DNA of 64,000 nucleotides. Source: an uncultured Methanosarcinales archaeon (lineage in GTDB: Archaea > Halobacteriota > Methanosarcinia > Methanotrichales > Methanotrichaceae). The notes beneath the pieces are model-generated. The model ran no database searches and was not told where the DNA came from. It saw nothing but the letters and a program-made list of their open reading frames with translations. Every line of letters begins with the position of its first letter. The first letter of the stretch is position 1. Positions 5,506 through 54,354 of this stretch are shown one piece after another. The stretch covers positions 39,631 to 103,630 of the forward strand of contig CAWJKV010000011.1 of assembly GCA_963843555.1 (NCBI GenBank). Direction: 5' to 3'. The position numbers and the translations under genes were made by a program.

Positions 5506-6784
5506 GTGATGCAAGCCATGACCCGTACCATAGCCGAAATAAACGAGCGAATCAAGAGCCAGGATGCAGTTGTGCTGACCGCCCAGGAGGTCTGTGATAT
5601 CGTCAAGGACGGCGGAGAGCTCGCCCTGAAAGACGTTGACGTTGTCACCACTGCCACCCGGGCCATAATGAGCGGAACCTATGCGGTGCTGTCGTTCCCC
5701 GTTGCAGAGCCCGGCACATTTGTCCGTGCCGAAAAGGTCTCGATCAACGGAGTTCCTGCCTGCATCGGGCCATGCCCAAATGAGCGGTTAGGCGTCATCG
5801 ACCTGATGGTCTACGGCACGGCACATAGCAAAGCTAAATCCGATTATGGCGGAGGACATCTGTTCCGGGAGCTGGTCGAGGGCCAGGAGGTTCAGGTTGA
5901 GGTTGAAACCTGTGAAGGAGGATCTCTTACAAAGGATATATGCCTGGATGACATCCCCTATGCTCAAATCCACTCCACTCGCAACGCCTTCAAGAACTAT
6001 GTGGCCTTTGTAAACCCCAGAACTGCTCCTTTGCCCACGATCTTCAGCGCGCTGCAATTTCCGCCCAATTTTAGCTGTGCCACGGTGTCCGGATGCGGTC
6101 AGCTCAATCCCATCAAGAACGATCCTAACCTGGAGACGATCGGCATAGGCACACGCATCCTCCTGAATGGCGCCCAGGGGTTTGTGATAGGCACCGGCAC
6201 TCGCAGCATGCCATCCAGGCCGAACCTTCTCGGGCTGGCTGACATGCACCAGATGAGCCCTGAGTACATGGGCGGTTTCATCACGTCCGCAGGCCCGGAA
6301 TGCATAGGCTCCTGGGCGGTGCCTATTCCGGTGCTGAATGAGTCCATCCTGGAGAAGCATACTGTTGCAGGATAGGGATATCCCCCTCACCATAATGGAC
6401 GTAAATATTCGCCAGAAGATCGGCAAGACGACCTATGAGGACGTCTGGGGCTCGTCTGATCTGGAGATCGAGTTCGATCCGGGCAGGTGCACCAGCTGCA
6501 GGAGATGTACTGCGGAGCCCGTCTGCCCCATGAGGGCGATCGCAATTGTTGGCGATCGGGTTATGCGCGATGAGGGTAAATGCTTCAATTGCGGTCTATG
6601 CGTCTCGCAATGCTCCGGCGGGGCGTTCCGTGGGAATCTCGGCGCCATCAACCTTGCGGGCAGGATGATTCCGATTCAACTCCGCCAATCGGATAGAGCG
6701 AGAGCTGTAAAGCTGGCAAAGGAACTGAAATCGCAGATTCTGGATGGATCTTTCAGGATGACAGAGATGGTGGAAAGATTGTGA
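5506..6784 (+). CDS. Methanogenesis marker 16 metalloprotein (DUF39 plus C-terminal 4Fe-4S dicluster), one frameshift near 6350
   Basis: RTIAEINERI, DVVTTAT, GPCPNERLG and GCGQLNP, then CxxCxxC...CP / CxxCxxCxxxC and LRQSDRARA. Confidence 0.8.
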
Positions 6785-7194: not shown

Positions 7195-7570
7195 CGTGTG
7201 CGCGTGGGCGCGGGTGCCCGCGTGGGCTTGCCGCCTGAGGGGGCCGGGAGGCCGGTCGGGCCTGGTGTCAGGGGGGCTTATCTCCTGAAGGGGCAGCTCT
7301 TTGGGGACTGGATTTTTGGAAGAAGATGGCAGTTCATCATTATTATTATCAGAAAATTATACCAAACAACTAACTGATCGCATCACAGAGGCACAGAGCG
7401 CACGGAGACTCGACGACTGAGGTTTCGGGCAGTCTCCGGCTTTGACGATCCTTGCTGGCTGTGGGCCAGCCTCGCTGGCAGCCCATCGAGCATGCGGCAT
7501 CCTTGCCTCGGATCCACGGCTCGCGCTCCAGGGTCTGCCGCTGTGGGCTGGGACTGTCCAGGGCTGCATC
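7195..7570 (+). repeat. Copy 1 of ~410-bp GC-rich repeat (nearly full unit)
   Basis: Core GTGCCCGCGTGGGCTTGCCGCCTGAGGGGGCCGGGAGGCCGGTCGGGCCTG at 7214, followed by GGATTTTTGG, AGAAAATTATACC, CACAGAG iterations and CCACGGCTCGCGCTCC. Confidence 0.92.
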
Positions 7571-7635
7571 AGTATGGCTGATTGACTGCCGCTAAACTTA
7601 AGTGTCCCTAAATCAAGATAGATTTGAGGCATCTA

Positions 7636-8097
7636 ATGCGCGCTAAAGCTCAGTTAGGCAAATCGGATCTGCCAATAAATATCGGAAGAAAGGCAAGAAG
7701 AAAGACCTCACGAGCCGGCTTTCTTCCTGGTGACGCAGCTCATGGCAAGACACCTGAGGTCAAAGATGTCCTGGAAGTTCTAAAAGCGATGCATGTGATG
7801 ATTCCAGAGACCTCTGAGGTCAGCGAGTACCTTCTTGCCCATCCGGATTTAAGCTGCCTGATTCCACCGATCTGCTGCAAACTGATCAAGACGTTCCCAG
7901 AGGATGCAAAGCTCTTTTTGGAGATTTACCGCGATCCCGAGATTCATGATGAGTATCTGACGCTTTACGTTCGAAAGAATGTGTACGAAGAGCAGATTTT
8001 GGACTGTATTGATGAAGCCATGGCAGAGTTCGAGCCGGCCCTGGGATCTGCATCGGGATGGCTCCTGGTGACTACAGATTTTCTTTTGCCAAAATAA
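7636..8097 (+). CDS. Hypothetical protein, probable partner/antitoxin of the downstream HEPN protein; start uncertain
   Basis: Intact ORF ending 15 bp before the HEPN gene; acidic C-terminal domain; no recognisable GSxxRG nucleotidyltransferase motif. Confidence 0.55.
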   Translation: MRAKAQLGKSDLPINIGRKARRKTSRAGFLPGDAAHGKTPEVKDVLEVLKAMHVMIPETSEVSEYLLAHPDLSCLIPPICCKLIKTFPEDAKLFLEIYRDPEIHDEYLTLYVRKNVYEEQILDCIDEAMAEFEPALGSASGWLLVTTDFLLPK

Positions 8098-8112
8098 GGA
8101 ACTATAAACTCC

Positions 8113-8481
8113 ATGTCCTTTGATTGGCGAGAATACCTCGATCTGGCAGAAGCCCTTATGGGAAGGAATAGCAAGCCCATAACAATTGAAGCTGCATTCA
8201 GATGCTCAATGAGCAGGATCTACTACGCTGCATTCTGTCATGCCAGGAACTACGCACAGAAAAAACAAAGTTTTGCCGCAAAGTGCAATGCTTCTGACCA
8301 TGCACGGATTAGAGAGCATTTTCGATCCAGCGGAATGACCAGGATTGCCGGCAACCTGGACAGACTGAGACAGTGGAGGAATGCCTGTGATTACGAGGAC
8401 TCCATCGAGATCTCTGAAAGGTCTTATGATGCCATGACGGCTCAAGCAAAGTATGTTCTTGAGGCTCTTAGAGACAAATAG
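8113..8481 (+). CDS. HEPN-domain protein
   Basis: FDWREYLDLA...SRIYYAAF...H...LRQWRNACDY pattern typical of HEPN (UPF0332-like) proteins. Confidence 0.75.
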   Translation: MSFDWREYLDLAEALMGRNSKPITIEAAFRCSMSRIYYAAFCHARNYAQKKQSFAAKCNASDHARIREHFRSSGMTRIAGNLDRLRQWRNACDYEDSIEISERSYDAMTAQAKYVLEALRDK

Positions 8482-8510
8482 GGAAGGAGCAGTCTAAGTC
8501 GTCCGTTGAG

Positions 8511-8827
8511 GGGCCGGGCCGTCCGGGCCGCATCGTCGTCTGCCGGTCGGGCGCTCGTGCGTGCTCCCGCATGGCTGCGCGCGTGCCCGCGTGGGCTTGC
8601 CGCCTGGGGGCCGGGAGGCCGGTCGGGCTTGATGTCAGGAGGGGCTTGTCTCCGGAATGGGTGGCTTTTCGGGGGCAGGATTTTTGGAAGAAGTGGCAGT
8701 TCATCATTATTATTAGCAGAAAATTATAACCGAACAACTACGAATAACACCACAGAGGCGCAGAGCGCACAGAGGCTTCACGGCTGAGGCTTCGGGGCCA
8801 GCTCCGGCTTGACGATCCTTGTGGGCC
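8511..8827 (+). repeat. Copy 2 of GC-rich repeat
   Basis: Core at 8583, AGAAAATTATAACC at 8718, and ACCACAGAGGCGCAGAGCGCACAGAG. Confidence 0.92.
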
Positions 8828-8978
8828 TTGGCTCGGCGGGCGGCAGCGCGGGCGCGGGTGTACGCTCGGTTGGCAGCATGGGGGCGGGAGGAACAATAGT
8901 GTGCAGAGGAGCGCGGACAGGTATGCTTTGCTGGCCGTTTCGGTAGGATCTGGCGCAAACGGGATTATTGGCTTGGAT

Positions 8979-9470
8979 TCATGGTCTCCATAAATTCAAG
9001 AAACCGACACGCTCAAAATCAGCATCATTTGTGGCCATCTCCTTTATCCCAAATGCCTTGCAGCAGGCGGTATGCAAGGCATCCCTGGGAAGAAGACGGT
9101 ATTCGCTGGCGCATTCCAGCGCGATTTTGGAGATAGAATAGTCAAGGCTCAGGACCTTTAGATGTCCTTTGGAGATGAGCACGTCGAGATAGTCATGAAA
9201 CTCATGCACAGGCACAAGGCAATCTTGCCAGGCATGTAGCATCGCTTTTTTCATCGATCTTGCGTCTTTCGGGCTTCCTGTTCTCCTGGCGGTCTGGACC
9301 ATCAGGACATAGGAAACCTCATCGATGACCAGAGGCGAGATGAACGCCTCGATAGTTCCTTGTTCAACCTTTTCCAGAAGCTCCTGGCAGCTTCTGCCGT
9401 AGGTGGGGTGGCCTGTCAGAAGGTAGGTGAAGATATTGGCATCAATGAACACTTGTCTCGTAATCTTCAT
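8979..9470 (-). CDS. vapC: VapC/PIN-domain toxin
   Basis: FIDANIF, VIDEV, LLPRDALH and ATNDADF, the PIN acidic tetrad. Confidence 0.9.
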   Translation of the reverse strand: MKITRQVFIDANIFTYLLTGHPTYGRSCQELLEKVEQGTIEAFISPLVIDEVSYVLMVQTARRTGSPKDARSMKKAMLHAWQDCLVPVHEFHDYLDVLISKGHLKVLSLDYSISKIALECASEYRLLPRDALHTACCKAFGIKEMATNDADFERVGFLNLWRP

Positions 9471-9630
9471 GTGCTTCCTCTAGCCCTTCCCAACACTTTA
9501 CGATCCCAAAGATTCTGCTGGTAGCGCTCCTTTGGACGCTTATCTCGACCTCATCACCTTCTTTCAGGTTCAACTCCCCAAGGGGCTTGAGGACTTTGTC
9601 TTCGTATCTAGCCCTGATCACGGCACCCAT
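9442..9630 (-). CDS. Antitoxin, DUF104/AF2212-like
   Basis: IRARYEDKVLKPLGELNLKEGDEVEI; overlaps the start of the PIN gene. Confidence 0.85.
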   Translation of the reverse strand: MGAVIRARYEDKVLKPLGELNLKEGDEVEISVQRSATSRIFGIVKCWEGLEEAHEDYETSVH

Positions 9631-9763
9631 CGTCTCACCAACATCATGATTTGTCTTTCATGGATAAATGAATATGGCTTTCACGCCTTATAAAGTGATG
9701 TCGATGATTCGTCGTGATCCGGTATGGCCCAGCCGCTCGCCGCGTGCCGCGCTGGTACGCGGA

Positions 9764-9830
9764 CTCTCGCATGGACGCGCTTGCCCGCGTGGGCTTGCCG
9801 CCTGAGGGGCCGGGAGGCCGGTCGGGCCTA
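9764..9830 (+). repeat. Copy 3 of GC-rich repeat (core only)
   Basis: CTCTCGCATGGACGCGCTTGCCCGCGTGGGCTTGCCGCCTGAGGGGCCGGGAGGCCGGTCGGGCCT. Confidence 0.9.
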
Positions 9831-9955
9831 ATCGCACTCACCGCTCCTGCTCTGGGCGCGGAAGGCAGGTCGAGCCTCAGGCCAGTCCTTTGCAGCTGCA
9901 GGTGTCAGTTGTGTAGTTTTCTGGCGATGGGTTACCGTAATGATGACTATCTCAA

Positions 9956-10312
9956 TTACCTTAAGCTCTCTTCACTGATCGCATCAAGGATCTGCTTCAT
10001 TTTCTGCTTCAGATCCGGTATATCCCCTTGAACAATCTCCCAGATAATCTGCAGGTCTACATTAAAATAGGCATGGATCATGCGGTTTCTGAGGCCAATC
10101 ATCTGGCGCCATGGTATCTGAGGATGCTCATTGCGTAGATCCTCGGAGAGATTCCGGGCTGCTTCTCCCATCACCTCTAACTGCCTTATCACTCCATCCT
10201 GAAGCAATCTGTTTCTCAAGAACTCTTCATGTGAAACATTATCCATGTAGTGCTCTATCAGCATAAAGGCATCTATGATGTGGTGAAGATAGACAGAATC
10301 ATCCTTCTTCAT
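9956..10312 (-). CDS. HepT-like (DUF86) HEPN RNase toxin
   Basis: YLHHIIDA, LEVMGEAA and IPWRQMIGLRNRMIHAYF, which contains the RX4H motif. Confidence 0.92.
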   Translation of the reverse strand: MKKDDSVYLHHIIDAFMLIEHYMDNVSHEEFLRNRLLQDGVIRQLEVMGEAARNLSEDLRNEHPQIPWRQMIGLRNRMIHAYFNVDLQIIWEIVQGDIPDLKQKMKQILDAISEESLR

Positions 10313-10601
10313 ATAACAGAACCAGGTCTTTTTCAGCATAAGGTCGCAAATAAGGGCTTAGCGATCCTTCTGCAATTAGCTCTACCTCCCTGCCCAGGAT
10401 GCGGCTGAGTTCATCCTCTAACCCGAACCATCCCAGACCCAATCGGGGACGTTTTTCCGGGTCTTTTAGCTCCACCAGGATATCAATATCGCTTTCCGGT
10501 GTCTCCTCTCCTCTCGCAAAGGAGCCGAAGACGGCAATACGTTTAACATAAGGCCTGAGCATGGGCAATACTTTGTCCCTCAGATCTGTATATCGGTTCA
10601 T
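10299..10601 (-). CDS. MntA-like minimal nucleotidyltransferase antitoxin
   Basis: Starts at MNRYTDLR; FGSFARGEETPESDIDILV; overlaps the HepT gene. Confidence 0.9.
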   Translation of the reverse strand: MNRYTDLRDKVLPMLRPYVKRIAVFGSFARGEETPESDIDILVELKDPEKRPRLGLGWFGLEDELSRILGREVELIAEGSLSPYLRPYAEKDLVLLYEEG

Positions 10602-10699
10602 TTGGTATCCTTTTCTCGCTATGCCTGTCCATTTGATACATGTTGGAAGTCTGCGTTTAAATAGATAAGGTCTTTGAGGAGCCCATACCACCCGCGTCC

Positions 10700-10897
10700 C
10701 GGCTGCTCCTCCAGTGTCCGACGCCCGTGGCCGGGCCGTCCGGATCGCATCGCCGTCTGCCGGGCGGGCGCTCGTGCGTGCTCTCGCATGGGCGCGCGTG
10801 CCCGCGTGGGCTTGCCGTCTGGGGGCCGGGAGGCCGGTCGGGCCTGGTGTCAGGGGCTTTTGCATTCTGGATAGTTGGCTCTTCAGGCGGGCTGGAT
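10700..10897 (+). repeat. Copy 4 of GC-rich repeat (partial)
   Basis: GGCCGGGCCGTCCGGATCGCATCGCCGTCTGCCGGGCGGGCGCTCGTGCGTGCTCTCGCATGGG plus core at 10798. Confidence 0.9.
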
Positions 10898-10985
10898 GAA
10901 AACTGGTGCCTGAAGATCGGATATTTCGATGCGTATAGATCCAAAACCTTATACTTGAGGAAAACGTGTTCTTAGTGGAGATTGC

Positions 10986-11189
10986 ATGGGAAGAAGAAAG
11001 ACGATCAAGCCAGCTGGGTCTGCAGCAGGATTGCGCAAGAGCGCCAGCGATTCTGAGACGGAGGATATCCTTCGGGATCCTGTCGTCATGAAGGTGCTTG
11101 AATCCGCAGACAGGCAATACGAAGAGGGAAAGGCTATACCCTTAAGTAAGCTCATGATTGATCTGGGGTTCGAAGAGGATGAGCTATAA
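10986..11189 (+). CDS. Probable RelB-like antitoxin
   Basis: Small acidic protein (ESADRQYEEGKAIPLSKL) overlapping the RelE-like gene. Confidence 0.7.
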   Translation: MGRRKTIKPAGSAAGLRKSASDSETEDILRDPVVMKVLESADRQYEEGKAIPLSKLMIDLGFEEDEL

Positions 11190-11463
11190 TGTTCTTCTCT
11201 CCGATGCCGTTAGCGATTACCTGAATTCACAAGATCGTGGCCGTCAGAAAGCTATTTTAAAGCACCTCTATGAAATGAGGAGTGACCCTTTCAAGGGCGA
11301 TGTGATCAGGCTCAAGCCGCCTCTCCAGAGGCTTTATCGCAAGAGAATCGGGAACGACCGGGTGCTATTCAGTATCCGGGGCGAGGACGTTTATTTGGAA
11401 TTGATGGGTGATCGCAGCTACGTGTATGAGCTGGCAAAGAGATTGGAACGAAATATTGGATGA
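11179..11463 (+). CDS. RelE/ParE-family toxin
   Basis: MSYNVLLS...GDVIRLK...LYRKRIGNDRVLF...GDRSYVY. Confidence 0.88.
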   Translation: MSYNVLLSDAVSDYLNSQDRGRQKAILKHLYEMRSDPFKGDVIRLKPPLQRLYRKRIGNDRVLFSIRGEDVYLELMGDRSYVYELAKRLERNIG

Positions 11464-11503
11464 AATGACGGCCCCTATTACAATTTGTCCGTAGATCCAA
11501 GCA

Positions 11504-12385
11504 TCGTGCGTGCTCTCGCATGGGCGCGCGTGCCCGCGTGGGCTTGCCGCCTGTGGGCCGGGAGGCCGGTCGGGCCTGGTATCAGGGGGGCTTGTCTCCG
11601 GGATTGGCGAGCTTTTGGGTGGGCTGGATTTTTGGAAACGAATGGCGGTTTGCTATTTTATTAGCTGAAAATTATAACCGAACAACTACCGATCACACCA
11701 CAGAGCCACAGAGCGCACAGAGGACGCACAGAGACTCTTGGGCGAAGTTTCGGGGCTGTCGTCTCCAGCTTGCGATTCATTGCGAACTGTGGGCTAGCCT
11801 CGCCCGGCAGCCCATCGACCGTGCTGCATCCTTGCCGGGGTCCACGGCTCGCGCTCCTGGGTCCGCCGCCCATGAGCCGAGCCGTCCGGGCCGCATCGTC
11901 GTCTGCCGGGCGGGCGCTCGTGCGTGCTCCCGCATGGGCGCGCGTGCCCGCGTGGGCTTGCTGCCTGGGGGGCCGGGAGGCCGGTCGGGCCTGATGTCAG
12001 GGGGGCTTGTCTCCGAAAGCGGCAGCTTTTCGGGCTGGATTTTTGGAAGCGATAATGTCTCACTTTACTATTCACTGAAAATTATGACATAACAATTACG
12101 GATCACCACAGAGACACAGAGCGCACAAAGGAAGCACAAAGACTCTTCGGCGAGGATCTTCCTGAACAGTCTCCATCTTTGCGATCCTTGCGGCTGTGGG
12201 CTAGCCTCGCACGGAAGCCCATCGGCGGTGCTGCATCCTTGCCTCGGGTTCCACGGCTCGCGCTCCTGGGTCCAATGCACGTGGGCCGGGTTGTCCGGGC
12301 AGTGTCGCCGTCTGCCGGTCGGCGCTCGTGCGTGCTCTCGCATGGGCGCGCGTGCCCGCGTGGGCTTGCCGCCTGGGGGCCGGAA
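11504..12385 (+). repeat. Copies 5-7 of GC-rich repeat, directly tandem (periods 414 and 408 bp)
   Basis: Cores at 11530, 11944 and 12352 with collinear intervening sequence; copy 7 is truncated at about 12385. Confidence 0.95.
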
Positions 12386-12532
12386 GGATGACAGGCAGGA
12401 GTACACCCAATTTCAGGGCTGGCTGTAAGGAGCCCTCGTTCGGTGCGACATGACCGAAGTGAAAGGCCAGTATTGGTGTATGTGTGAAAATCAAGATCAA
12501 TTGCTTGCAGATAACACTAGCGCAGCAAAGTC

Positions 12533-15500
12533 CTACTCTAAAGAATGCCGACAAATTGAAAATCTTACATCAGCCTTAATTTTTGAGATTTCGTCAGTAG
12601 GTCCTTCTATTAGATATCTATCCAAAAGAGATAGATCCCGACGGGTACCCTTCACTTTAAGGAATGCAGCAACAACCAGCAGGCCCCTCAAGCAGCAATT
12701 CAGTCCCAACCATTTCTCAATGATTATTTGAGCCCGAGGATCATGTCGCTTTTCAAATTTCTCAACCCAATGAGTAAAATGCCACATTAGGCTTTCTGAA
12801 TCCAAACTCAGATCTGCCGAAAATTTATCCAATTCTTTTAGCAGATCTTCATCGGTAGGGTAGAAGCGTATTCGCCATTCTTCAGTAAGCTTGTTGGAAA
12901 TGTACTCCTTGTTCTCATTCAGGAATTCCTATTCGTTGGCAGAATTCTGCTATATGCCATAGCGTATCGTCATCAAGATTATCGAAATATGGAACTAATC
13001 GTTCCAAGTGCTTCACTGTAAGGTATTGCTGTCTCCTTTCTTCGGAGAACCCAAAAAACCAATGAAGCTGTTTAAAGATTGGCACCTTGCCTGGACATCC
13101 GCGAATACTGGAATCTGCAAGTCTCAGGGTTTTTTCCGTACCAATGTACAGAGCCGCTTGGACAAATCTTGGAATGCATTTAAGATACTTCCAATATTTC
13201 TCCAGTAGCGTTTCTGCATCTTTAGAAGGTATCGTAGTCAAAATTCGTGAAAGATAATACGCTGTATTGTCAGAGGTTTCATCAGGAATTTTATTCTCTA
13301 ATGCCTCCATGTAATGTTCAGTAACGGCCATGATCTCATCACACCAAACATTGTGTGTAATGTGGAACATGTGCATATCACTTAACAAAAGAGATGCTAA
13401 TTGCTTTGTAACGCTCATATCACCAAGCTGCGCGCGTCTACGTATTGCCATTCGGTAAAGCGAAGATTCGGAAGCTATTTCTCTCAGGATGCCAAGTTGT
13501 TCTTGTTGAGCGTTATTGCTCCATATTCTAAACGCCTGATATCTCACCTGTCCATCAGCTTCAAGAGAATTCCATTGTTTTTTTAGCATTTCCATTGATG
13601 GTTGTGACAACATGCGGCCGGCAGGACGAGTTGGATTCCATGTATCTGATAAATACATTGCAAAAAAAGTCCCTTTTTCTTTAGCGGCAAACTGCACGAT
13701 GCATTCGATCGCTTCTGGTGTGTCGATGCGTTCAAGTATTATTGCAATTGGCCAGTACAAAGAATCACATGAGTTCTGCAAGCCAATAAAATAATTAATG
13801 GCTTCATTACTGATGCCTCGCGACATGGCAAAAGTAAGTTCCTCTGAAACCTGAATCCTTGGACTAGGCTCAAAATTAGATTTATCTTTATCAGATAAGC
13901 TTGCCAAATAGTTCATCATCGGCCCGAGAAGTTTATCCGCTCGATCAGTGCAACATCGGGATCCTGCCCAGATTGCATCTGCCAGGACGTATTCTTTATC
14001 GTTTGCGAGATTCCAGCAATCAATAATTTCTTTTTCCAATTCAACAAACCCTAAGAAACCAACTAAAGCCAAGGAGCCTTTGCGTTCCTTATCCGTAGAA
14101 CTAAGAGATGTTAATAATCCCCTTAGCTCATTCAATAGTTGTACTTTATGTCGCTTTTTGGCGTGTTCAATCATTTGATCTCGCAAATCAGAACCCGTAC
14201 TGATAGAAACCCGATTACAGTATTCTGCGCCACTTCTTGCACAGCCATTCCGCAAGCGAGATAAAAGAATTGGCCAATAATGAGGGAACTTTTCAGTTAT
14301 ATCAAGAACGGCAGTAGAATCCGTATCAATTAGACTCCAGCAGATTGAATTAACGACGGAATCCAGGACGACTCCTGTTACTAAATTCTTTTCTACCCAA
14401 ATATTAATTATATCTATGATTTTTCTATGGTAGTCCGTAGTGGGATTGCCGAGATTTTTGAGGGCTTCAAAAAGAACCAATGGGTGATTTTCCGCAAAAA
14501 CTTGAATAATGGTCTCAATTTGGGGTGATAATATAATAGCTTTGCCAATTATTTCGGCATAATAAGGTTCCTGCAATATCTCTAAATTTAAGAGAGGATC
14601 TTCGAGCATCGAAATCATTATATTTACTAGTAATGTCTCTCTGATACGGTCATGGCGGAAAGCTAGTCTATTTTCACGATCTGTTAATCGAATAAGCTTT
14701 TTATGTCGGATAAGTTCACGCATAACATTCAATGTTTCATGATCTTTCTCAAGCCAATATTGAATCTCTTCCCAAGAGGGATTAAATCGTCTTTCTCTTA
14801 ACATATGTGTGCATACACAGGAAAGAGCTTTTAGATATTCATTTGATAGATATCCCCTATCAGAAGCGACTTCTTTGATACATTGATCTATGAACCTTTC
14901 TACAACCCTATCTGTTATTTCGTTCAAGTCGTTTAAGCTAATCAGATTGGGGCCATTAGGTATTAGCTGACAAAATAGGCCTATTAATACAGGATCATTA
15001 CCCAATTTTGTGGCCAATGTTCGGTTTTCAGCACTGGTAAGGGATATCCCTGCAGCCGAAGTTGCTAGCCTAATAGCAATTAAGCCCTCTTCAGGTGTCA
15101 TGGAGCCCACGGAAACCGAGTGTATCCAAGAATTCGTTCTTTGATTACGATCCCAAACCTGAGTCCAAAGAGGACATATAATAAAATATGCTGAGGATGA
15201 ATCTCTTATATCATTTGGTGCATCTGATTGAGGAGGACGTGACCAATTGAGAAGTCTATCTATAATTTTCTTTGGTTCATCAATTCGATTTATATCATCA
15301 ACAACTAAAATGAACTTCGATCCTCCTCGAATAAATTGACGCATATACTTTTCTGAACCATTTGATAGATCCGGATGCAGATCTCGTAAAGTCTTATCAA
15401 CTACATTTTCAATAGATGTACAATTTTGAATAAGATCAGCCGGCACCCACAAACCGTATCCACCAGATTCGATATGATTTTTCAGTGCTGTATACGCAGC

Positions 15501-16211
15501 AACACTTTTGCCAAAACCAGAATCGCCAACAAGGACTTGAAATGTGCATCTATTATCGAAAATCCCTGCTCGGATAAAATCATCTATCGTTCGCGGTAGC
15601 CAGACCTTTGGATCGGACAATTGATTTTCTTTTCCGTAACGGGCTAGACTCTCTCTGCAAATGTAGCTCAATAATGACTCTGACAAAAGTTCAGCCTCAA
15701 CACCAAGATATTCACGTCGAAGCCAATGACCTTCCGGCTTATTGTCTAGGAAATCAGCCAGAAGAGATTGATCCCAAATGCGACAATTAAATTCAAGCTC
15801 TTTTGCTTTTTTTAAGGTATCGGACACTAATTTTACGTCGAGACGTTGATTTGTAGCAAGTATTACCGTGAAATCCGCTTCAGGATTTTTCTCCCTAATC
15901 TCATGTGCCAAATTATATGCTTTGATAAGATCTCCATTATCATTATTGAGCCATTTCGTTCTGAGTTTAGCTCTTTCTATCGTAGTAAATTGCAGAAATA
16001 AGAATCTGTCTGGTTTTATTCCAGGAACAAGACAAAATCCGTCTACTGGTGAGCGTATGGTCTCTCCCTGGGCATTAATACCGGTATGAATTGCCGCTGA
16101 GCAATCGTTGTCAGCACAACGCAGAATTGACATAGCCAAGCGTTCAAATTCTCCTCGATCGGTCATTCTTTCGAGAACTTCAACCGTACTCAATTGCTTA
16201 TTGACCCCCAA
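12533..16211 (-). CDS. Large STAND/NACHT-like P-loop NTPase with putative N-terminal nuclease-like domain and helical C-terminus; probable defence protein; one frameshift near 12915
   Basis: Walker A GDSGFGKS, Walker B ILVVDD and FRHDRIRE. Reading continues in another frame (NKEYISNKL...) into ORF 12533-12832. Visibly AT-rich. Confidence 0.7.
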
Positions 16212-16294: not shown

Positions 16295-17827
<1,533 letters not shown>

Positions 17828-17829
17828 AA

Positions 17830-18189
17830 ATGAAAGAAGTCCTGGCCATCATCCAGATGAACAAGATGGAGGCAACGAAAGACGCTCTCGATGTCATCGG
17901 CATTCCCTCCATCACCGCCTACAAGGTCACCGGCCGGGGAAAGCAGAAGGGCCTCGTGATCCCTCACCCCTCAGAGCTTGCTGGAGTCGAATGAAAAGAG
18001 CATGAAGTACATTCCCAAGAGGATGATCTCGGTTATGGTGGAAGATGAGTTCGTTCCGGCTGTGGTGGCTGTGATCACCAAAGTGAACCGCACCGGAAAC
18101 TTTGGCGACGGCCGGATCTTCGTCTGTCCCGATGGAGGAGTCGGTCCGAATAAGAACCGGCGAGACGAGGGAGCGTGGCCATATCATGA
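17830..18189 (+). CDS. nifI2: PII-family nitrogenase regulator NifI2 (frameshifted)
   Basis: MKEVLAIIQMNKM, VTGRGKQKG, YIPKRMIS, TGNFGDGRIFV and VRIRTGE. Confidence 0.9.
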
Positions 18190-19798
18190 GCGGAGTCGAG
18201 AGAGAGCCGGTAACCATTGCCAGGAGCCGCCAGACGGTCGAAGGAATGCTGCAAGGCATTCCCAAAAAGACGAGCGAGATCAGAAGAAAGCACGTGGTCG
18301 TCAAGGACTCCTGCGAGATCGAGCAGAAGATCGAGGCCAACGACCGCAGCATCCCCGGCATCCTGACCAACCGCGGCTGCGCCTACGCCGGCTCCAAGGG
18401 AGTGGTCTTCGGGCCGATCAAGGATATCCTGCATATCACCCACGGCCCCATCGGCTGCGCCTACTTCACCTGGGGCAGCGCGCCGCAATCTCATGAAGCC
18501 GGAAGAGGGCAGGGACTGCTACTCCGGCTACTGCCTGAGCACGGACGTCAAGGAGACCGATATCGTCTTTGGAGCAGAGAAGAAGCTGGCGCAGGCCATC
18601 CGGGAGGCCTATGCCATCTTCAAGCCGGAATGCATCTCGGTCTTCTGCACCTGCCCCATCGGCCTCATCGGCGACGATATCGAATCGGTCTGCCGCAAAG
18701 CCGAGGAGGACCTCAAGATCAAGGTCATTCCCGTGCGCTGCGAAGGCTACCGGGGCGTCAGCCAATCGGCCGGCCACCACATCGCCTCCAATGCGCTGAT
18801 GGAGCATCTGGTGGGCACAGAGGAGCTGGAGAACCCCGGACCCTTCGACGTCAACGTCTTCGGCGAGTACAACATCGGCGGAGACTACTGGGTGGTCAAG
18901 GATCTGCTGGAGAGGGTCGGCTACCGCATCGTCAGCCCCTTCACAGGCGACGCCTCCTTCCACGATATCGCCAAAGCCCACCGGGCCAAGCTGAACATCC
19001 TGCTCTGCCACCGCTCCATCAACTACACCAACCGCATGATGGAGGAGAAGTACGGCATTCCCTGGCTGAAGGTCAACTACCTGGGCGTGGAGGACACCGT
19101 CAAAACCCTGCGGGATATGGCCGCCTTCTTCGACGATCCGGATCTGACCAAGAGAACAGAGGCTGTTATCGCCGAGGAGATGGCCAGGGTCCAGCCGGTC
19201 ATCGATATGTACAGGAAAAGGCTGGCGGGAAAGAGGGTCATGATCCTGGTCGGCGGCTCACGTGCTCACCACGTCAGGAACATGTTCGAGACCCTTGGGA
19301 TGGACGTGGTCGTGGCCGGCTACGAGTTCGCTCACCGGGACGACTACGAAGGGCAGAAAGGTCCTATCCAGCATCGTCCACACCGGACGCTCCAAGGTCC
19401 TGGAGGATATCCACTACGAGCGCGACCCGAACGTCGTTTCGCCCTACGACGATGCCGCCCTCCAGAAGAAGAAGGAGAAGATTCCGAGGCTCATGGATTA
19501 CGAGGGCCTGCTGCCCCATATGAAAGACGGCCAGGTCATGATCGACGACTACAGCCATCACGAGTGCGAGCGGCTGGTAAAGGATCTGGGAGTGGATCTC
19601 TTCTGCTCGGGAATCAAGGACAAGTACGTCTTCCAGAAGATGCACATTCCCTCCCGCCAGATGCACTCTTACGACTACAGCGGCCCTTACACCGGCTTTG
19701 AGGGCTTTGTACAGTTCGCCAAAGACATCGACATGTCCGTGAACAGCCCCACCTGGAAATTCATAAACCCACCCTGGAGGCAGATTAGCAATGCTTGA
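18186..19798 (+). CDS. nifD: Nitrogenase MoFe protein alpha subunit (frameshifted)
   Basis: RGCAYAG, HGPIGC, CPIGLIGDD, LCHRS (FeMoco Cys), YEFAHRDDY and QMHSYDY (FeMoco His). Carries the ~50-aa insertion of group II NifD. Confidence 0.95.
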
Positions 19799-21150
19799 TT
19801 ACACACCAAAAGAGATGGCGAAACGGGAGACGCTGGTCATAAACCCGGCCAAGATCTGCCAGCCCATCGGCGCCATCCTGGCCTACAAAGGCATCCACAA
19901 CTGCATGCCCATCACCCACGGCTCGCAGGGGTGCAGCTCATACCTGCGCATGGTGCTGGCCCGCCACTATCGCGAGCCTACGCTCGCTGCCACCTCCTCC
20001 TTCACCGAGGACTCCGTGGTCTTCGGAGGCAGAAACAACCTCAAGGAGGCGGTCAACAATGTCGTGAACATCTATCATCCCGATGTTCTGGCCATCAACA
20101 CCACCTGCTCCTCTGAGACCATAGGCGACGATGTCTCCTCCTTCATGGAAGAGATCAAAGAAGAGGAGTTCTTCGACCCCAATGTGCGCGTCGTTATTGC
20201 CAGCACCCCGAGCTACGTCGGCTCGCACATCACCGGCTACGACAATGCCGTCAAGGCCATCGCCCAGAGCTTTGCCCGCAAAGGCTAGCCCAATGGCAAA
20301 TTGAATGTCATACCCGGATTCGTGGACCCGGGAGACATTCGTGAGATCAAGAGGATCCTGGGCATCATGGGCGTTCGCCATATCATATTCCCTGATACCA
20401 CGGACGTCTTCGACGCGCCCCTGACACCCGAGTCCGGCGGCCTCTATCCGCCTGGAGGAACTACCATCCCGGATCTGATGGACGCCGGCAACTCCCGCGC
20501 CACCATTGCCCTGGGAAGGACCGCCGGAGCCTCGGGCGCCGTGGTCTTGAAAGGCAAGTTCAGCATCCCTGCCGTCATCGGCCCCATGCCCATAGGCATT
20601 CGCAATACCGATGCCTTTGTGATGAACGTCTCCAGCCTCATGGACGTCCCATTCCCGCAGGAGATGGAGTACGAGCGAGGCCGGCTGGTGGACATGATGA
20701 CCGATGCCCATCCCCACTTCCACGGCAAGAGCGTGGCCATCTTCGGAGATCCGGACACGGTCATCGGCCTGGTCAGCCTGGCTGTGGAGATGGGCATGAA
20801 TCCCGTCATATGCTCTCACCGGCACGCCGGACAAGAAGTTCGCCGAGGAGGTGCATAATGTCGCCCCGGACTGCGAGGCCATCATCGGCGACACCTTCCT
20901 CCTGCACCAGAAGATCAAGAACCATCCTGTGGATATGCTCATCGGCAACACCTTCGGCAAGCTGATCGCCAGAGCCGAGGACATACCTCTGGTGCGGGTG
21001 GGCTTCCCCATCACCGATCGGGCCAATCTGCATTACTTCCCCATCATCGGCTATGCCGGAACGGCACGCCTGGTGGAGATGATCGGCAACACCTTCCTGG
21101 AAAGACGGGACAGAGACTCGGACGACACTCACTTCGAGATGATCCTGTAG
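19791..21150 (+). CDS. nifK: Nitrogenase MoFe protein beta subunit (in-frame TAG at 20286 and a frameshift near 20815)
   Basis: INPAKICQPIGA, HGSQGC, TTCSSETIGDD, TPSYVGSH, ERGRLVD and VGFPITDR. Confidence 0.93.
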
Positions 21151-21165
21151 GAAAAGTGAACTACC

Positions 21166-22581
21166 ATGAGCGTGATCAAGATCTTCGAAGGCAGAGAGGG
21201 GCACATCCCCCAGAAAGCGCGGCTCGATCCCATGCCCCTCTCCTGCAGCAACGAGAGCCTGGCCGGAGCCGTCAGCCAGAGAGCCTGCGTCTACTCCGGA
21301 GCCAGGGTGGTGCTCAATCCCCTCACCGATGCTCTTCATCTGGTGCACGGGCCCATAGGCTGCGCCAGCTACACCTGGGACATCCGAGGCAGCTCTACCT
21401 CCGGCCCGGACCTCTACAGGAACAGCTTCTCTACGGACATGAAGGAGCTGGATGTGGTCTTCGGCGGCGAGAAGAAGCTGGCAACGGCCATACGGGAGCT
21501 GGCGGACAGGTATCATCCGCCGGCCATCTTCGTCTACTCCACCTGCATTGTGGGTATCATCGGAGACGACCTGAGAGCCGTCTGCCGCAGAGCGGCAGCA
21601 GGAGCTTGGGCATACCCGTCATACCTGTACAGTCGGAGGGCTTTCGAGGGAAACAAGAACGAGGGCTACAAAGCCGCCTGCAACGCCCTCTTCGAGCTGA
21701 TCGGAACGGAGGACTATTCAGCCCACGAGCCCCTACCATCAACCTGCTGGGAGAGTACAATGTGGCCGGAGACCTCTGGGCCATCAAGCCCCTCTTTGAG
21801 GAGATGGGAATCGAGGTGGTAGCTACGCTTGACCGGTGACGCCCGGGTAGAGGAGATCCAGAGAGTGCCATACAGCTCAGCTTGAATCTGGTGCAGTGCA
21901 GCGGCTCCATGACCTATCTTGCCAAGAAGATGGAGGAGAAGTACGGTATTCCATATCAGGCGCATCAGCTTCTTCGGCTGCGGGGACATGGCCTCAGCCT
22001 TGCGCACTGCTGCCGAGTTCTTCGGCGGCCGCTAGGATGATAGCGAAGGCAGAGGAGATAATCGACCGCGAGACGGCCCGGGTGATGCCCAGAATCGCAT
22101 ACCACCGCTCCAGGGTGCGGGAAAGAAGGCTGCCATCTACATGGGAGGCGCCGCCAAGGCCGTCTCTCTGGTCAGGGCCTTCGAGGAGCTGGGAATGGAG
22201 GTGGTGATCATAGGCACTCAGACCGGAGATCGAGACGACTATCAGAAGATAAGCTACATCGTAAAGGACGGCACGGTGATCATCGACGATGCCAATCCGC
22301 TGGAGCTCAGAGAGCTGCTGCTCAAGCAGAAAGCAGATCTGCTGGTGGCAGGAGTGAAAGAGAGGTTCCTGGCCTACAAGCTGGGAATCGCCTTCTGTGA
22401 CTTCAATCACGACCGGACCACGAGCTTCGAGGGCTACGACGGAATGGTCAACTTCGCCAGAGAGGTCGGATGTCAGCCTCAACAGTCCGGTCTGGAAGCT
22501 GCCCATGCATAGATCAAGCCTCTTGGAGTCCGGAGGTCGGCAATCGAGAGTCCATCGAGAATGTAGCAAACGGAGGTGTGA
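21166..22581 (+). CDS. nifE: FeMo-cofactor scaffold NifE (multiple frameshifts; end approximate)
   Basis: AGAVSQRACVYSGAR, HGPIGCASYTWDIRGS, GEYNVAGD and DFNHDR. Confidence 0.92.
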
Positions 22582-23896
22582 ATGCCAATGTCTGAGAGCT
22601 TTTCCACAGTTAACCCCTGCACCATGTGCATGCCCATGGGCAGCGTACTGGTCTTCCGGGGAATCGAAGGCTGCATGCCTCTCTTCCACGGCTCTCAGGG
22701 ATGCAGCACCTACATGCGCCTGTACCTGGCCCATCACTTCCGGGAGCCGGTGGATATCGCCTCCTCGGCCCTGAGCGAGAAGGGGACGGTCTACGGAGGA
22801 GCTGCCAATCTCAAGCAGGGGCTGAAGAATGTGATCACCGGCTACAGCCCCAAAGGCCATCGGCATAGCCACCACCTGTCTGGCTGAGACCATCGGGGAT
22901 GATATAGTGCAGATCATCAGGGAGTTCCGGACAGAGGAGGCATCGGCTCCAGTCTACCATCATCCCCGTCTCGACGCCCAGCTACGCCGCGTCTCATGAG
23001 GAGGGATACAGAGTCGCTTCAAGGCGCTGGTTCAGGCCCTGGCCAGGAGGACCGAGCCCAGCGACGGGTCAACCTGGTGATGGGCTCGGTGATCTCGCCG
23101 GCGGATGTTCGCTACCTCAAGGATATGCTGGAGGACTGGGGATTGCAGACGAGTTCATCCTGCTTCCGGATATATCCGAGACCTTGGATGCTCCCTCAGT
23201 GGAAGATCCGCCCGGCATCCCTGAGGGGGGAACGCCCCTGCGTGATGTGATCGACACTGCCAACTCCCGCCATACGTTGACAATAGGCGGGCGGTTTCAG
23301 AAGTGCCTCGGCCGGGGAACTACCTGGAGAGAGAGTTCGGGGTGCCGCATACTACGATGCCCCTGCCCATCGGCCTTGCAGACACCGACCTCTTTGTCTC
23401 CAGGATGGAGGAGCTGACGGGCATTGGCCTTGCCCGGAAAGTATGAGACAGGAGAGGGGCAGGCTGCTGGATACCCTGGCGGATGTTCACAAGTATCTGG
23501 CTGGTGTCAAGAGTGGCGGTCTATGGAGATTCGGATATGCGTCTGGGATTGACTCGTATCCTCTGTGAAGCGGGAGCCATGAGCCGCCGATTGTGGCCAC
23601 GGGCTCATGCAGCTCCCGCTTTGAGGCGGAGGTAAGGGCGGCGTCTGAGGATCCACGGATTCTCCTGGGCGCTGACTTCACCCAGATCCACAGCGAGGTA
23701 AGAAAAGGGAAATCGATCTGATGGTGGGCCCCTTCACTGGCAGCCAGATATCCAGAAAAGAGGGAATACCGCTCTTGCGGGTGGGTCTTCCCAACCACGA
23801 TCGGGTGGCCGACTCACCAGCTCCTCCTGGGATACGAGGGAGCGGCATTGGTGGAAGGAATGGCCAATGCGTTGCTGGATGTAAGGGATGGCATGA
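22582..23896 (+). CDS. nifN: FeMo-cofactor scaffold NifN (multiple frameshifts; end approximate)
   Basis: VNPCTMCMPMG, HGSQGCSTYMR, HFREPVDIASS and RVGLPNHDR. Confidence 0.88.
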
Positions 23897-27106: not shown

Positions 27107-27140
27107 CACACTTCGGCTGAAGAGTATCTTTGGGAATCCA

Positions 27141-27277
27141 GGAAGGAACTAATAGTCTCATTCAAGCAGCAAAGGATAGTGCAAGAGGCTTCAGGTCAAC
27201 AAAGAATTTTATTATTACTATTTATCTTAGGATGGGCAACTCGAATTCATTTTACCCACATGAAACAGCGAAGAGCC
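27141..27277 (+). mobile_element. ISL3-family 3' remnant with terminal inverted repeat
   Basis: Near-identical to the reverse complement of about 63386-63522. Encodes EGTNSLIQAAKDSARGFRS and ends ACCCACATGAAACAGCGAAGAGCC. Confidence 0.92.
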
Positions 27278-43385: not shown

Positions 43386-43867
43386 CAGATGCTGGGAATC
43401 TTTTTGACATAATTCCGAGATACGACCTGAGTCTCGATCGTTCTCCATCAATAATGGCATGTGAGCTGTTCGCATATGAGCCACGTTTGGGACCTTTTTA
43501 AAGACGTTAGGAGATACGCTAATGTCATTAAATTGCAGACGGGACCTGTCCTATAGAGGCGAGGACGGCTCTTTTTCTTCTGGGGTACCGCGAGTCGGCT
43601 TGCTAGCCGCGGCTACCGGGGGCGCCGCTCCAGGCCGCAGCCGGCCAAGCGACGGCGGTTAAGCTTTAGACTTTTTCGAGAGTTCCAATGTCTAGATGTA
43701 GCCACGACTTTTTGCATGAGGTCGAGTCGGTGATGTCAAAGCATCCTGACTTCCATCCGCCATATGTGAACCCCGTCCTGAGCTCATGGGCGTTCTGTCT
43801 TCAATACCACCACATGGATCCCTATTTCGCCACGATCATTCTTAAATTCTAAGAGCGCCGCTATTCA

Positions 43868-44092
43868 ATGATGAAATACTCAGTCATCCTGGAACCTCAA
43901 GAGGAAGGTGGATTTACTGCCCGCTGCCTGGAGCTTCCGGGTGCAATCAGCCAGGGCGAAACAAAGACAGAAGCTCTGGAGAACATCAAAGAGGCCATCA
44001 GTCTAATTCTGGAAGTGTTCCGCGAAGATCTGGAAAGCCTGAATCGCACCAACTCTGAGGTTCTCAAGGTAGAACTTGCCGATGTCTTCTAA
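43868..44092 (+). CDS. hicB: HicB-like antitoxin
   Basis: EEGGFTARCLELPGAISQGETKTEALENIKEAI. Confidence 0.88.
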   Translation: MMKYSVILEPQEEGGFTARCLELPGAISQGETKTEALENIKEAISLILEVFREDLESLNRTNSEVLKVELADVF

Positions 44093-44294
44093 GCTGCCGG
44101 TCCTCTCTGGCGAGAAGCTGATAAAAATTTTGGTCCGAGAGGGATTCACCGTCAGGAAGCAGTCGGGAAGCCATGTCGTGATGCAAAAGGCTGAACGAGT
44201 CTTTGCCGTTCCTCTGCATGAAGAGCTGAAGAAAGGGACACTAAATGCGATTTTGAAGCAGGCTGGCCTGGAGATAGAAGATCTGCAAAAATAA
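44082..44294 (+). CDS. hicA: HicA-like toxin
   Basis: GFTVRKQSGSHVVM...VPLHEELKKGTLNAILKQAG. Confidence 0.9.
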   Translation: MSSKLPVLSGEKLIKILVREGFTVRKQSGSHVVMQKAERVFAVPLHEELKKGTLNAILKQAGLEIEDLQK

Positions 44295-44342
44295 TCAATG
44301 CAAGATATAAACTATTCCCGGACAGGCACGACTGAATTTGCT

Positions 44343-44651
44343 TCACTTTTTATAGAGCATCTTCCCTTCTTTGAGAGCCATCTTGATAAAAGGCCGGTGC
44401 TTCATCTCCTCGAACTCCTGGGTGTGTAGACCAGCACATCCATGGCCTCCCTGGCATCATCATAGAACTCGTCCAGCCGATCAAGAAATCTCATCTGGGT
44501 ATCCTTCACTACGATCAGGTCGATATCGCTGTGATCGCGGGCGTCGCCTCTGGCCAGAGAGCCGAATAGGAGGACCAGTCGCACGCTTGGGATCGCTCTT
44601 CAGCCGCGTCAGGATTCTCTCCAGCTCTGCATTCAGCTCAGCCACTGTCAT
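44343..44651 (-). CDS. Minimal nucleotidyltransferase (MNT), frameshifted, no adjacent HEPN partner
   Basis: LFGSLARGDARDHSDIDLIVV...DVLVYTP. Confidence 0.8.
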
Positions 44652-44732
44652 GGAATTTTCAGATTACCAGATTGGAATTGGCAGTATTGCCTTTTTTAGC
44701 TTGCCATATGACGGTCAACTATGTGAAATATT

Positions 44733-45143
44733 TTACTTTATATTTAACTTTAAAATATCCGTAGGCGTCGCCTTTCCTCGCTTTGTTCTATCAAAATCGC
44801 TATCAAAACTGACTAAGATGAGATTGTATTTCTCTGCCAGAGCATATTGATAGGCATCATCATAATCGAGCTTGAATCTTCTGGAGGCTTGGATGACCTT
44901 TTGCATATCTTCTGGGCCTAGCCGTATCAGGCGAATACCTCCCACCAAAAGCATATCCTCCACAGCTTTCAAGAAAATATCATGCATGACGCGACGTACC
45001 AATGCAACACCAATCGAATCTAATGAGAATTCAGATATGCAGAGCATCTCCGGAGGTGTTTCCAGAAGGAGCCGTTCTACTTCATCTGCTCTTTTCTGGT
45101 TAAGTAGCAGCTCCAGGAGAATGTTAGTATCCAGGAGATACAT
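44733..45143 (-). CDS. vapC: VapC/PIN-domain toxin
   Basis: MYLLDTNILLE, LDYDDAYQY and VSFDSDFD. Confidence 0.9.
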   Translation of the reverse strand: MYLLDTNILLELLLNQKRADEVERLLLETPPEMLCISEFSLDSIGVALVRRVMHDIFLKAVEDMLLVGGIRLIRLGPEDMQKVIQASRRFKLDYDDAYQYALAEKYNLILVSFDSDFDRTKRGKATPTDILKLNIK

Positions 45144-45349
45144 CAATCTCCTCTCCACTCCAGGATCTTGTGCTGCAGCTCCACCGATGTGTACTGATCC
45201 TTCATATCTTCCAAAGCTCCCCTCCAATCCAGCTTCAAGCGACCTTTCGGCTTTCGCCCTCGCTTCTCCATCAGGAACCTTGCGAAATCGGCGACCTCTT
45301 GATGGAGATCAGGAGGAAGCTCTTTGATTACTTCTTCCAGCTCTGACAT
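45143..45349 (-). CDS. DUF2281-like antitoxin
   Basis: LPPDLHQEVADFARFL...WRGAL...SVELQHKILEWR; TGATG overlap with the PIN gene. Confidence 0.8.
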   Translation of the reverse strand: MSELEEVIKELPPDLHQEVADFARFLMEKRGRKPKGRLKLDWRGALEDMKDQYTSVELQHKILEWRGD

Positions 45350-53609: not shown

Positions 53610-53667
53610 AAATTGCCTCAGGCCCAAACGAAACAATTTATATTTTGAGCTTCCTGTGTATCTGCAA

Positions 53668-54354
53668 ATGATGCGATTTACCGCCTACGTCTCAGGTAGA
53701 ATCCAACGGGTAGGCTATCGGGCTAGGATCGTTGATCTGGCCAGGGAGATGGGTCTGTCAGGCCTGGTACAGAATCGTCCAGACGGACGGGTTCTTGTTA
53801 TTGCCGAGGGAGAGAAGCAAACCCTGGAGAAGTTTGCGGCTGCCCTTCAGATAAAAAATACCTTTATCGAAGTGAAGGGTATCAGCTTGGAGTATTCTCC
53901 AGGATCAGGAGGATTTTCAGACTTTCGCAAAATCACTGGTCCTGACGAGGTTGGAGAGCGTCTTGACGACGGCATTGAGATCCTAAAAGAGATGGTCACG
54001 AGCCTGAATAGCCTGAACGGCAAAATGGATCAATCGCTCAACAAGCAGGACCAAATGCTGGGCAAACAGGATCAGATGCTCGACAAACAGGATCAGATGC
54101 TCGACAAACAGGATCAGATGCTCGACAAACAGGATCAGATGCTCGACAAACAGGATCAGATGCTCGACAAACAGGACCAGATGCTCGACAAACAGGATCA
54201 GATGCTCGACAAACAGGATGATACCATAACGGAGATTCGAGGACTCAGAGGCGATTTGAAGACCCATATGGACATGAGGTTTGAGCGCATTGAAGCAGAC
54301 CTCGCGGAGCTGAAAGAGATGAAGACAGCGCTCAAAGAGAAAGGCATCATCTAG
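53668..54354 (+). CDS. Acylphosphatase domain plus coiled-coil with KQDQML heptad repeats
   Basis: VSGRIQRVGYR and GLVQNRPDGRV acylphosphatase motifs. Confidence 0.85.
   Translation: MMRFTAYVSGRIQRVGYRARIVDLAREMGLSGLVQNRPDGRVLVIAEGEKQTLEKFAAALQIKNTFIEVKGISLEYSPGSGGFSDFRKITGPDEVGERLDDGIEILKEMVTSLNSLNGKMDQSLNKQDQMLGKQDQMLDKQDQMLDKQDQMLDKQDQMLDKQDQMLDKQDQMLDKQDQMLDKQDDTITEIRGLRGDLKTHMDMRFERIEADLAELKEMKTALKEKGII
54040..54219 (+). repeat. 21-bp coding tandem repeat GACAAACAGGATCAGATGCTC (about 8.5 units)
   Basis: Read directly from the sequence; translates as xKQDQML. Confidence 0.95.

Follow-up and report, generated by a model that had tools for sequence, protein, structure and literature searches.

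The DNA analysed here (the window) is a stretch of 64,000 nucleotides from an uncultured Methanosarcinales archaeon, G000:C11:39631-103630, where G000 denotes the source genome, C its contigs and, below, L the loci examined. A repeat that we term type A occurs upstream of a NifH-like gene in seven copies, all in one direction, which separate two empty units and four two-gene modules; next comes a STAND-like gene. Comparison with relatives demonstrates that this array belongs to a real, genus-wide and polymorphic system of toxin-antitoxin (TA) cassettes that operates without a recognisable integrase. Its architecture appears to be undescribed so far, and its recombination chemistry is probably ordinary. 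The locus comprises the following features.

7195..7575, + strand: repeat copy 1, a nearly full type A unit by profile, core at 7214
7636..8481, + strand: cassette 1, an unnamed 153-aa gene (7636-8097) and a HEPN/UPF0332-type gene (8113-8481)
8509..8831, + strand: repeat copy 2, a junction piece from unit position ~342 followed by positions 4-272, core at 8583
8979..9630, - strand: cassette 2, an AF2212/DUF104 antitoxin (9442-9630) and a PIN toxin (8979-9470), Pfam cut-offs passed
9720..9831, + strand: repeat copy 3, consisting of the junction core alone and reaching to unit position 59, core at 9781, left edge approximate
9956..10601, - strand: cassette 3, an MNT antitoxin (10299-10601) and a HepT toxin (9956-10312), Pfam cut-offs passed
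10693..10902, + strand: repeat copy 4, unit positions 318-393, the junction, then positions 3-120, core at 10798
10986..11463, + strand: cassette 4, a RelB-like (10986-11189) and a RelE-like gene (11179-11463), weak family matches only
11508..11917, + strand: repeat copy 5, a full empty unit, with a possible archaeal TATA-like site at ~11671 and CACAGAG repeats at ~11697-11730
11918..12325, + strand: repeat copy 6, a full empty unit, 82% identical to copy 5
12326..12395, + strand: repeat copy 7, truncated at ~12385, the 16 nt across its end being those of the end of a type C copy (C11:22853)
12915..16211, - strand: an AT-rich gene for a 1098-aa STAND/NACHT-like protein (sub-threshold AAA_16 match) in the variable downstream slot
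16413..17509, + strand: conserved host flank, the nifH upstream region and the NifH-like gene (16694-17509), forming the right edge of the variable region

The repeat unit, whose extent was set by a profile built from copies in relatives, is ~390 bp long: a GC-rich junction leads into an AT-rich core, which is followed by three to four CACAGAG repeats and, at the end, by a GC-rich tail. The seven + strand cores lie at 7214, 8583, 9781, 10798, 11530, 11944 and 12352, as an earlier, sequence-only reading of this DNA had placed them, with spacings of 1369, 1198, 1017, 732, 414 and 408 bp. The relatives' profile puts copies at 7208-7571, 8578-8831, 9775-9831, 10693-10902, 11524-11913 and 11938-12322, the truncated seventh ending at ~12385, and pairs of copies in the window have exact stretches of 23-51 nt around the core in common. 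Copies 5 and 6 bear out the tandem arrangement (spacings of 414 and 408 bp) recognised in that reading and are complete, the remaining copies being cut at differing points; because the two are only 82% identical, the tandem is not the assembly duplication that had been considered as an objection. The same reading took the element to be GC-rich, which does not hold throughout, since the AT-rich core and the CACAGAG repeats after it are its best-conserved part. The repeat is non-coding, as had been supposed: a coding sequence is ruled out by the absence of period-3 conservation (p 0.74-0.98) together with the indel pattern, 533 of 865 indels being of 1 nt and some of these perhaps read errors. 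It had no match in Rfam and its folding did not exceed expectation, leaving a structured RNA or single-stranded DNA (ssDNA) hairpin unsupported, and a sigma-70 scan, which does not cover archaeal promoters, found no promoter. We take the look of the AT-rich core to resemble a TFB recognition element (BRE) and TATA box, as a candidate only. The length of the unit, a median identity of ~67%, gene-bearing gaps with a median of 818 bp and the lack of an Rfam match agree that this is not a CRISPR.

Each of the first four gaps had been read as holding one two-gene module. Pfam confirmed this identification for the PIN/AF2212 and HepT/MNT pairs; the RelBE-like pair drew weak matches (for the RelE-like gene, TIGR02116 at E=0.038 and PDB 1wmi at E=0.1), and the HEPN gene of cassette 1, with no Pfam match, owes its name to the UPF0332 label on 3 of its 56 homologues, UPF0332 being, we assume, a HEPN family. 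The search for a family gave no name for its 153-aa partner. All four cassettes recur elsewhere beside other neighbours, their best copies being 88-96% identical: cassette 1 at 92-96% in three other arrays, cassette 2 at 93-96%, and cassette 4 at 94% in L062. For the large gene after the array, the STAND-like assignment relies on the AAA_16 match and on Atlas neighbours bearing NACHT/nSTAND3 domains. The gene at 16694-17509 is one that we presume to be NifH-like from its sequence.

With one natural copy as query, 37 of the 59 genus genomes gave a match at E<=1e-15. Elsewhere in the phylum, matches were confined to 2 of 300 genomes, over no more than a 44-bp central motif, with none in the 8 genomes from other genera of the family. 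Since 35 of the 80 records among the central-motif matches listed are Methanothrix or Methanotrichaceae by manual count, the host genus is likely Methanothrix. In G000 itself, a second type A array (C16:47.4-53.6 kb) contains seven repeat pieces and six cassettes, and further repeat-delimited TA clusters, termed B (C9:78-85 kb), C (C11:20.7-28.3 kb), D (C2:176-182 kb) and E (C5:346-354 kb), use other repeats. The type C array (C11:20700-28290, its right part being L057) lies 10-19 kb to the left of the window and has 7 copies with TA and DUF488 cassettes in its 6 gaps; type C arrays in the eight relatives examined differ in cassette order. In type B clusters (L053:9950-16800, equivalent to the C9 cluster, and L043), the CACAGAG motif is arranged in inverted pairs that flank a TA-centred palindrome, and the intervals between pairs contain TA genes together with acylphosphatase-like and GxxExxY genes. 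Type D pieces are fused to type A units in some arrays, and copy 7 of the window passes into type C sequence at a shared CCGG-AGG word, just after which type C homology also fades. Element F is dispersed, GC-rich and ~500 bp long, with more than 20 copies in G000 and no clear ends, and at times brackets HicAB pairs; one copy lies in the window at 43480-45349, right before HicB-HicA, an MNT fragment and DUF2281-PIN. A single superfamily for types A-F was considered and rejected, the alignments being only marginal (best p ~0.01 in 15 tests). Type A arrays are spread over many unrelated loci, single copies are also present on their own, and in L284 (6083-8945) approximately seven empty type A units stand adjacent with no genes between them. 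The CACAGAG half also stands alone, often forming dyads, at 43 sites in G000 compared with 3.5 in shuffles, and in bacteria it is located between ordinary genes.

To characterise the cargo, we compiled a census of 61 arrays from 24 independently assembled genomes, among them the single-contig G019. It comprises 44 type A, 9 type C, 6 mixed A/D and 2 type D arrays with 178 gaps, and is not a random sample because loci were picked by repeat match. Copies are clustered, with 377 of 383 profile matches on the majority strand of their array, and the arrays, holding up to approximately ten cassettes, are strongly biased toward TA genes, contrary to a scattering of copies devoid of TA enrichment. A family representative with a TA-type match in Pfam or NCBIfam is present in 123 of 176 gene-bearing gaps, rising to 149 when weak matches and calls by eye are added. 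In the background set, for which 90 of 91 small open reading frames (ORFs) outside type A arrays were scanned, the 14 TA-type matches are all confined to two clusters next to repeats of type C or F, the 74 remaining ORFs having none. The commonest cassette without a family match, found in 8 arrays, pairs a 96-aa with a ~175-aa protein (families 0 and 3; L242:6224-6514 and L243:4143-4673) and is a candidate new TA or defence pair.

The census also revealed extensive exchange of these cassettes. Genes point with the repeat or against it in equal measure (62 and 63), and 67 of the 69 recurring gene families keep one orientation to it. Cassettes tend to bring their own repeat edges (the right edge of MNT2 at 287-300, f9 at 375 and Phd at 228-231) and recur at 92-98% identity with different neighbours, drawing on a pool common to different loci. 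Both orders were found for 28 of the 48 cassette pairs that co-occur in at least two arrays, and 106 of 112 adjacencies are distinct, so that loss alone cannot be the source of the variation. Exchange appears confined within repeat families, as 0 of 112 gene families are common to type C and type A/D arrays. Median copy identity is 74.5% within an array and 67.8% between arrays of one genome. These patterns sustain the suggestion, made from the sequence, of a shuffling platform for TA and defence modules, the same cassettes appearing in other orders and at other loci across the genus.

The window array occupies a site that is itself variable. Among 22 regions upstream of the relatives' nifH orthologue, 8 carry copies (2-13 matches) with different cassettes and 14 have none, 7 of the latter being shorter than 4.5 kb and hence little informative. 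The order in G019 is amt-array-nifH, and in G066 amt lies directly next to nifH. No array follows any of 10 orthologues of the left flanking gene; the nifH side is the conserved anchor and the opposite flank varies among genomes. Inspection of the nifH edge revealed no precise att site. Beyond the last copy, the next gene is in many cases a large one of defence-like type (Gabija, HD-CE, SIR2, Shedu, caspase, TIR, nSTAND3), and PADLOC (E<=1e-30) matched 6 of 26 submitted downstream proteins versus 1 of 31 upstream; in the window this downstream slot has no closing repeat. The nifH-upstream regions of L206, L209, L214 and L222 contain large variable genes without type A copies, with PDC-S06, helicase and AAA matches in three of the four, which makes this site a hotspot independently of the repeat.

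At one locus, near-identical strains show cassette gain, loss, duplication and reordering in place of the invariance that would be expected of a static array. Five strain joints were mapped and fall into three intervals of the unit, with locally identical repeat sequence wherever both parents are in hand. L041 and L250 have 4,694 nt of flank that are 100% identical, identity ending with the junction motif (~unit 55), after which one has a single copy and the other six; L295 holds a cassette of L250 in another order, the switch lying within the 24-nt junction motif (~unit 33-57), and the joints of L041 and L295 thus map to a motif of 21-24 nt. In L275 a 2.9-kb block is duplicated with a switch in a 7-nt stretch at ~unit 12-19, where identity in L293 ends too. 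Finally, L238 has a HicAB cassette that L256 does not, with 99.4-99.9% identity over 12 kb, and their switch lies inside a 161-nt exact tract (~unit 68-222) that spans the CACAGAG dyad palindrome. Exact sharing of at least 100 nt occurs in only 5 of 225 within-array copy pairs (median 24), and the L238/L256 indel falls in one of them. Across the collection, break points of cassettes are found all along the unit and linkage between variable sites is low throughout, with no single break, in line with the proposal that break points differ between cassettes. The TA-centred palindrome of the CACAGAG dyad was rejected as the type A crossover site, many cassettes being without it and no short mapped interval lying there.

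Searches for a dedicated enzyme or site were negative within their scope. IntI (TIGR02249, E<=1e-20) was found in none of the 59 genus genomes, 30 of which are at least 90% complete. Among 155 long copies, none contained an attC R-box pair (RYYYAAC ... GTTRRRY; shuffled rate 1.5%), as the sequence-only reading had maintained for attC cores, and none of 155 copies contained a dif-like ATAA-N6-TTAT, archaeal dif sites possibly differing from this pattern; both patterns are those we presume to be the consensus. Tyrosine recombinases do not track the arrays: G050, G066 and G058 (94-97% complete, 8-16 unit matches) have no PF00589 match at E<=1e-15, and G041, G052 and G072 have 7-12 such matches and no unit match. 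The GxxExxY nuclease (PF13366) was rejected as a homing driver and is treated as cargo because 15 of 59 genomes have it and neither G000 nor G019 yielded a match. In G000, which is 82% complete, no reverse transcriptase matched, the one resolvase match is interrupted by a stop, and two Y1 genes, sought in this genome only, have their own ends unrelated to the repeat; no co-distributed recombinase emerged from the search that had been advised. The 165 flanking ORFs, clustered and annotated for a subset, include no recurring recombinase, a result that an unrecognised enzyme family would escape. Viral contigs and plasmids gave no match to three exact patterns and one blastn query, and neither type A nor element F showed fixed ends, terminal inverted repeats or target duplications.

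The reading that we favour, with a probability of roughly 0.6, is that the repeats act as homology anchors for host recombination and that addiction filters the cargo toward TA pairs. A cassette would be a repeat unit in which a minimal TA operon has taken the place of the middle part; neighbouring cassettes would hence always meet in repeat sequence, the first capture presumably proceeding by an illegitimate joint. Gain, loss, duplication and reordering would then follow from homology-dependent recombination between copies, by a host RadA-type or annealing pathway, whether through unequal crossing-over, through pop-out followed by re-entry, or through incoming DNA. Crossovers would take place wherever two copies are locally identical, mostly in the ~100-bp junction kept by all cassettes, and each repeat family would thereby hold its own cassette pool. 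As direct repeats make any cassette easily lost, addictive TA pairs would persist and neutral cargo would not; beyond the last copy, a one-sided slot reaching to the host gene would house a large defence gene. Comparison among genomes brings out the architecture, the cargo, the fixed orientation, the reordering, the strain-level indels, the separate pools and the several crossover intervals; the enzyme, the circles and the addiction filter we infer.

Several observations weigh against this reading. Overall copy identity of only ~67-75% is low for RadA-type recombination, and G000 has a MutS homologue. Homology leaves unexplained why the AT-rich core and CACAGAG repeats are best conserved when many cassettes are without them. 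Metagenome contigs, which could be chimeric, are the source of four of the five joints, and for L041 and L293 one parent only is in hand. No excised circles were present in the contigs of four related runs, which cannot show absence; in three of the four, ~950 other letters stand between the repeat halves. A preferred site would equally fit two further findings: of 22 left ends of high-identity shared segments, which are not independent of one another, 10 gather at unit 35-44, and four of the five strain joints fall no more than 60 bp from the junction. They lead to a reading that we regard as doubtful, although it carries more weight than the remaining rivals: a short, relaxed junction site (~unit 33-57) would serve as the target in trans of a dedicated recombinase whose gene lies elsewhere, in the manner of an integron with a new enzyme, later gene conversion blurring the joints. 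Besides the two joints and ten left ends at the junction motif, the ends of window copies 3 and 7 in or just past it, the passage of copy 7 to type C sequence at the CCGG-AGG word and the fixed cassette orientation speak for such an enzyme. The other joints, at unit 12-19 and in the long tract, do not, and the junction motif is conserved in any case and would draw alignment ends to it. Moreover, the flanking ORFs offer no candidate, IntI, PF00589 and GxxExxY do not track the arrays, and similarity across repeat families is marginal.

An origin as a non-autonomous mobile element, of a repetitive extragenic palindromic (REP) or miniature inverted-repeat transposable element (MITE) kind or moved by an HUH enzyme, with tandem insertions carrying adjacent TA operons, growth by transposition and recombination as a secondary process, is unlikely. 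It would account for the dispersed, dyad-forming CACAGAG half and its intergenic placement in bacteria, for the bracketing of HicAB by element F, and for arrays at unrelated loci beside solo copies, since new loci need seeding; that no element-like ends, target duplications, excess hairpin folding, link to either Y1 gene or matches in viral contigs or plasmids were seen argues against it. Very improbable, and largely refuted, is a passive hotspot or artefact, in which TA genes and repeats build up separately at intergenic hotspots, or the arrays are assembly errors, with no movement of cassettes as units. The nifH-upstream region does take defence-like genes without repeats (G052, G021, G004), the frameshifts of G000 are typical of noisy long reads and contig L279 has a joint inside genes; yet cassettes carry their own edges between arrays with orientation kept, recur near-identically beside different neighbours and are found in independently assembled genomes. 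A bolder extension, which we put forward only tentatively, is a maintained integrase-free system in which several independent repeat families serve as adapters with their own TA pools, exchange is driven by a trans-acting factor that binds either the junction motif or the AT-rich/CACAGAG core, and large anti-phage genes are drawn into the downstream slot.

Several known systems resemble these arrays in part. Like integrons, CALINs (clusters of attC sites lacking an integrase) and archaeal integrons, as described in the passages available (PMC9668308, PMC13108822, PMC12614218), the methanogen arrays comprise ordered small cassettes with same-direction repeats and reshuffling between strains. 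They differ in having no IntI and no R-box pair, a ~390-bp repeat without excess folding, cargo in both orientations rather than mostly co-oriented, and several crossover intervals instead of one fixed point. Where available, PMC9668308 gives TA genes as 10.5% of functionally predicted cassette proteins in archaeal integrons, in contrast to ~70-85% of methanogen cassettes; its main text, as far as available, does not name Methanothrix or Methanosaeta, and its supplementary tables could list Methanothrix. In integrons, TA cassettes are enriched and punish cassette loss according to the portion of PMC13108822 available, with which the addiction step of the favoured reading would agree. The Acinetobacter pdif modules (PMC6449649, in part) are likewise genus-specific and flanked by repeated sites with no module-encoded enzyme, but the methanogen sites are extended and degenerate, have several crossover intervals and contain no dif-like core. 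Neisseria minimal mobile elements (MMEs) and the arrays of Neisseria intergenic mosaic elements (NIMEs) with dRS3, in the sections available of PMC3898611, exchange whole genes by homologous recombination alone, with repeat mosaics promoting exchange; the joints within identical tracts would fit such a process in the methanogen arrays. The anchors of MMEs, according to the same source, are conserved flanking genes with alternative content at one site, whereas here non-coding repeats anchor; the downstream defence slot is the most MME-like part of the methanogen arrays. REPs with their associated tyrosine transposases (RAYTs) and TIRtrons (PMC3733652, in part) likewise involve a dispersed intergenic repeat, often as inverted dimers as for the CACAGAG half, and differ in that no Y1 transposase in G000 is flanked by the CACAGAG motif; the available main text of that paper does not mention this motif, nor do its passages describe TA cassette arrays. 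Literature searches, with slight coverage of subscription journals, retrieved no description of such arrays.

Known cassette arrays need an integrase and short defined sites, whereas those described here use long degenerate repeats of several families at once and carry nearly only TA genes. If a trans-acting factor is involved, this abundant, acetate-using methanogen would add a third way of building gene-cassette arrays to those of IntI/attC and Xer/dif. The arrays offer a natural test of whether chromosomal TA pairs are kept by addiction or by defence value, and a guilt-by-location source of new TA and defence genes, with families 0/3, 64 and 94/95 and the large downstream genes without family match as examples.

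Some further features were observed in the window. Frameshifts split a gene of the HcyBio family (5506-6784) and the nif genes (16694-23446), suggesting long-read indel errors in the assembly. An acylphosphatase-like gene (53566-54354) ends in a heptad repeat tail derived from a 21-bp tandem repeat, and proteins like it occur as array cassettes and also between direct repeats at C7:223 kb. A 15-bp tandem repeat (52649-52813) lies within the end of a 261-aa ORF, and a long inverted repeat pair (27133-27277 and 63386-63531) is set 36 kb apart, with an ISL3 transposase fragment at 63400-63960.

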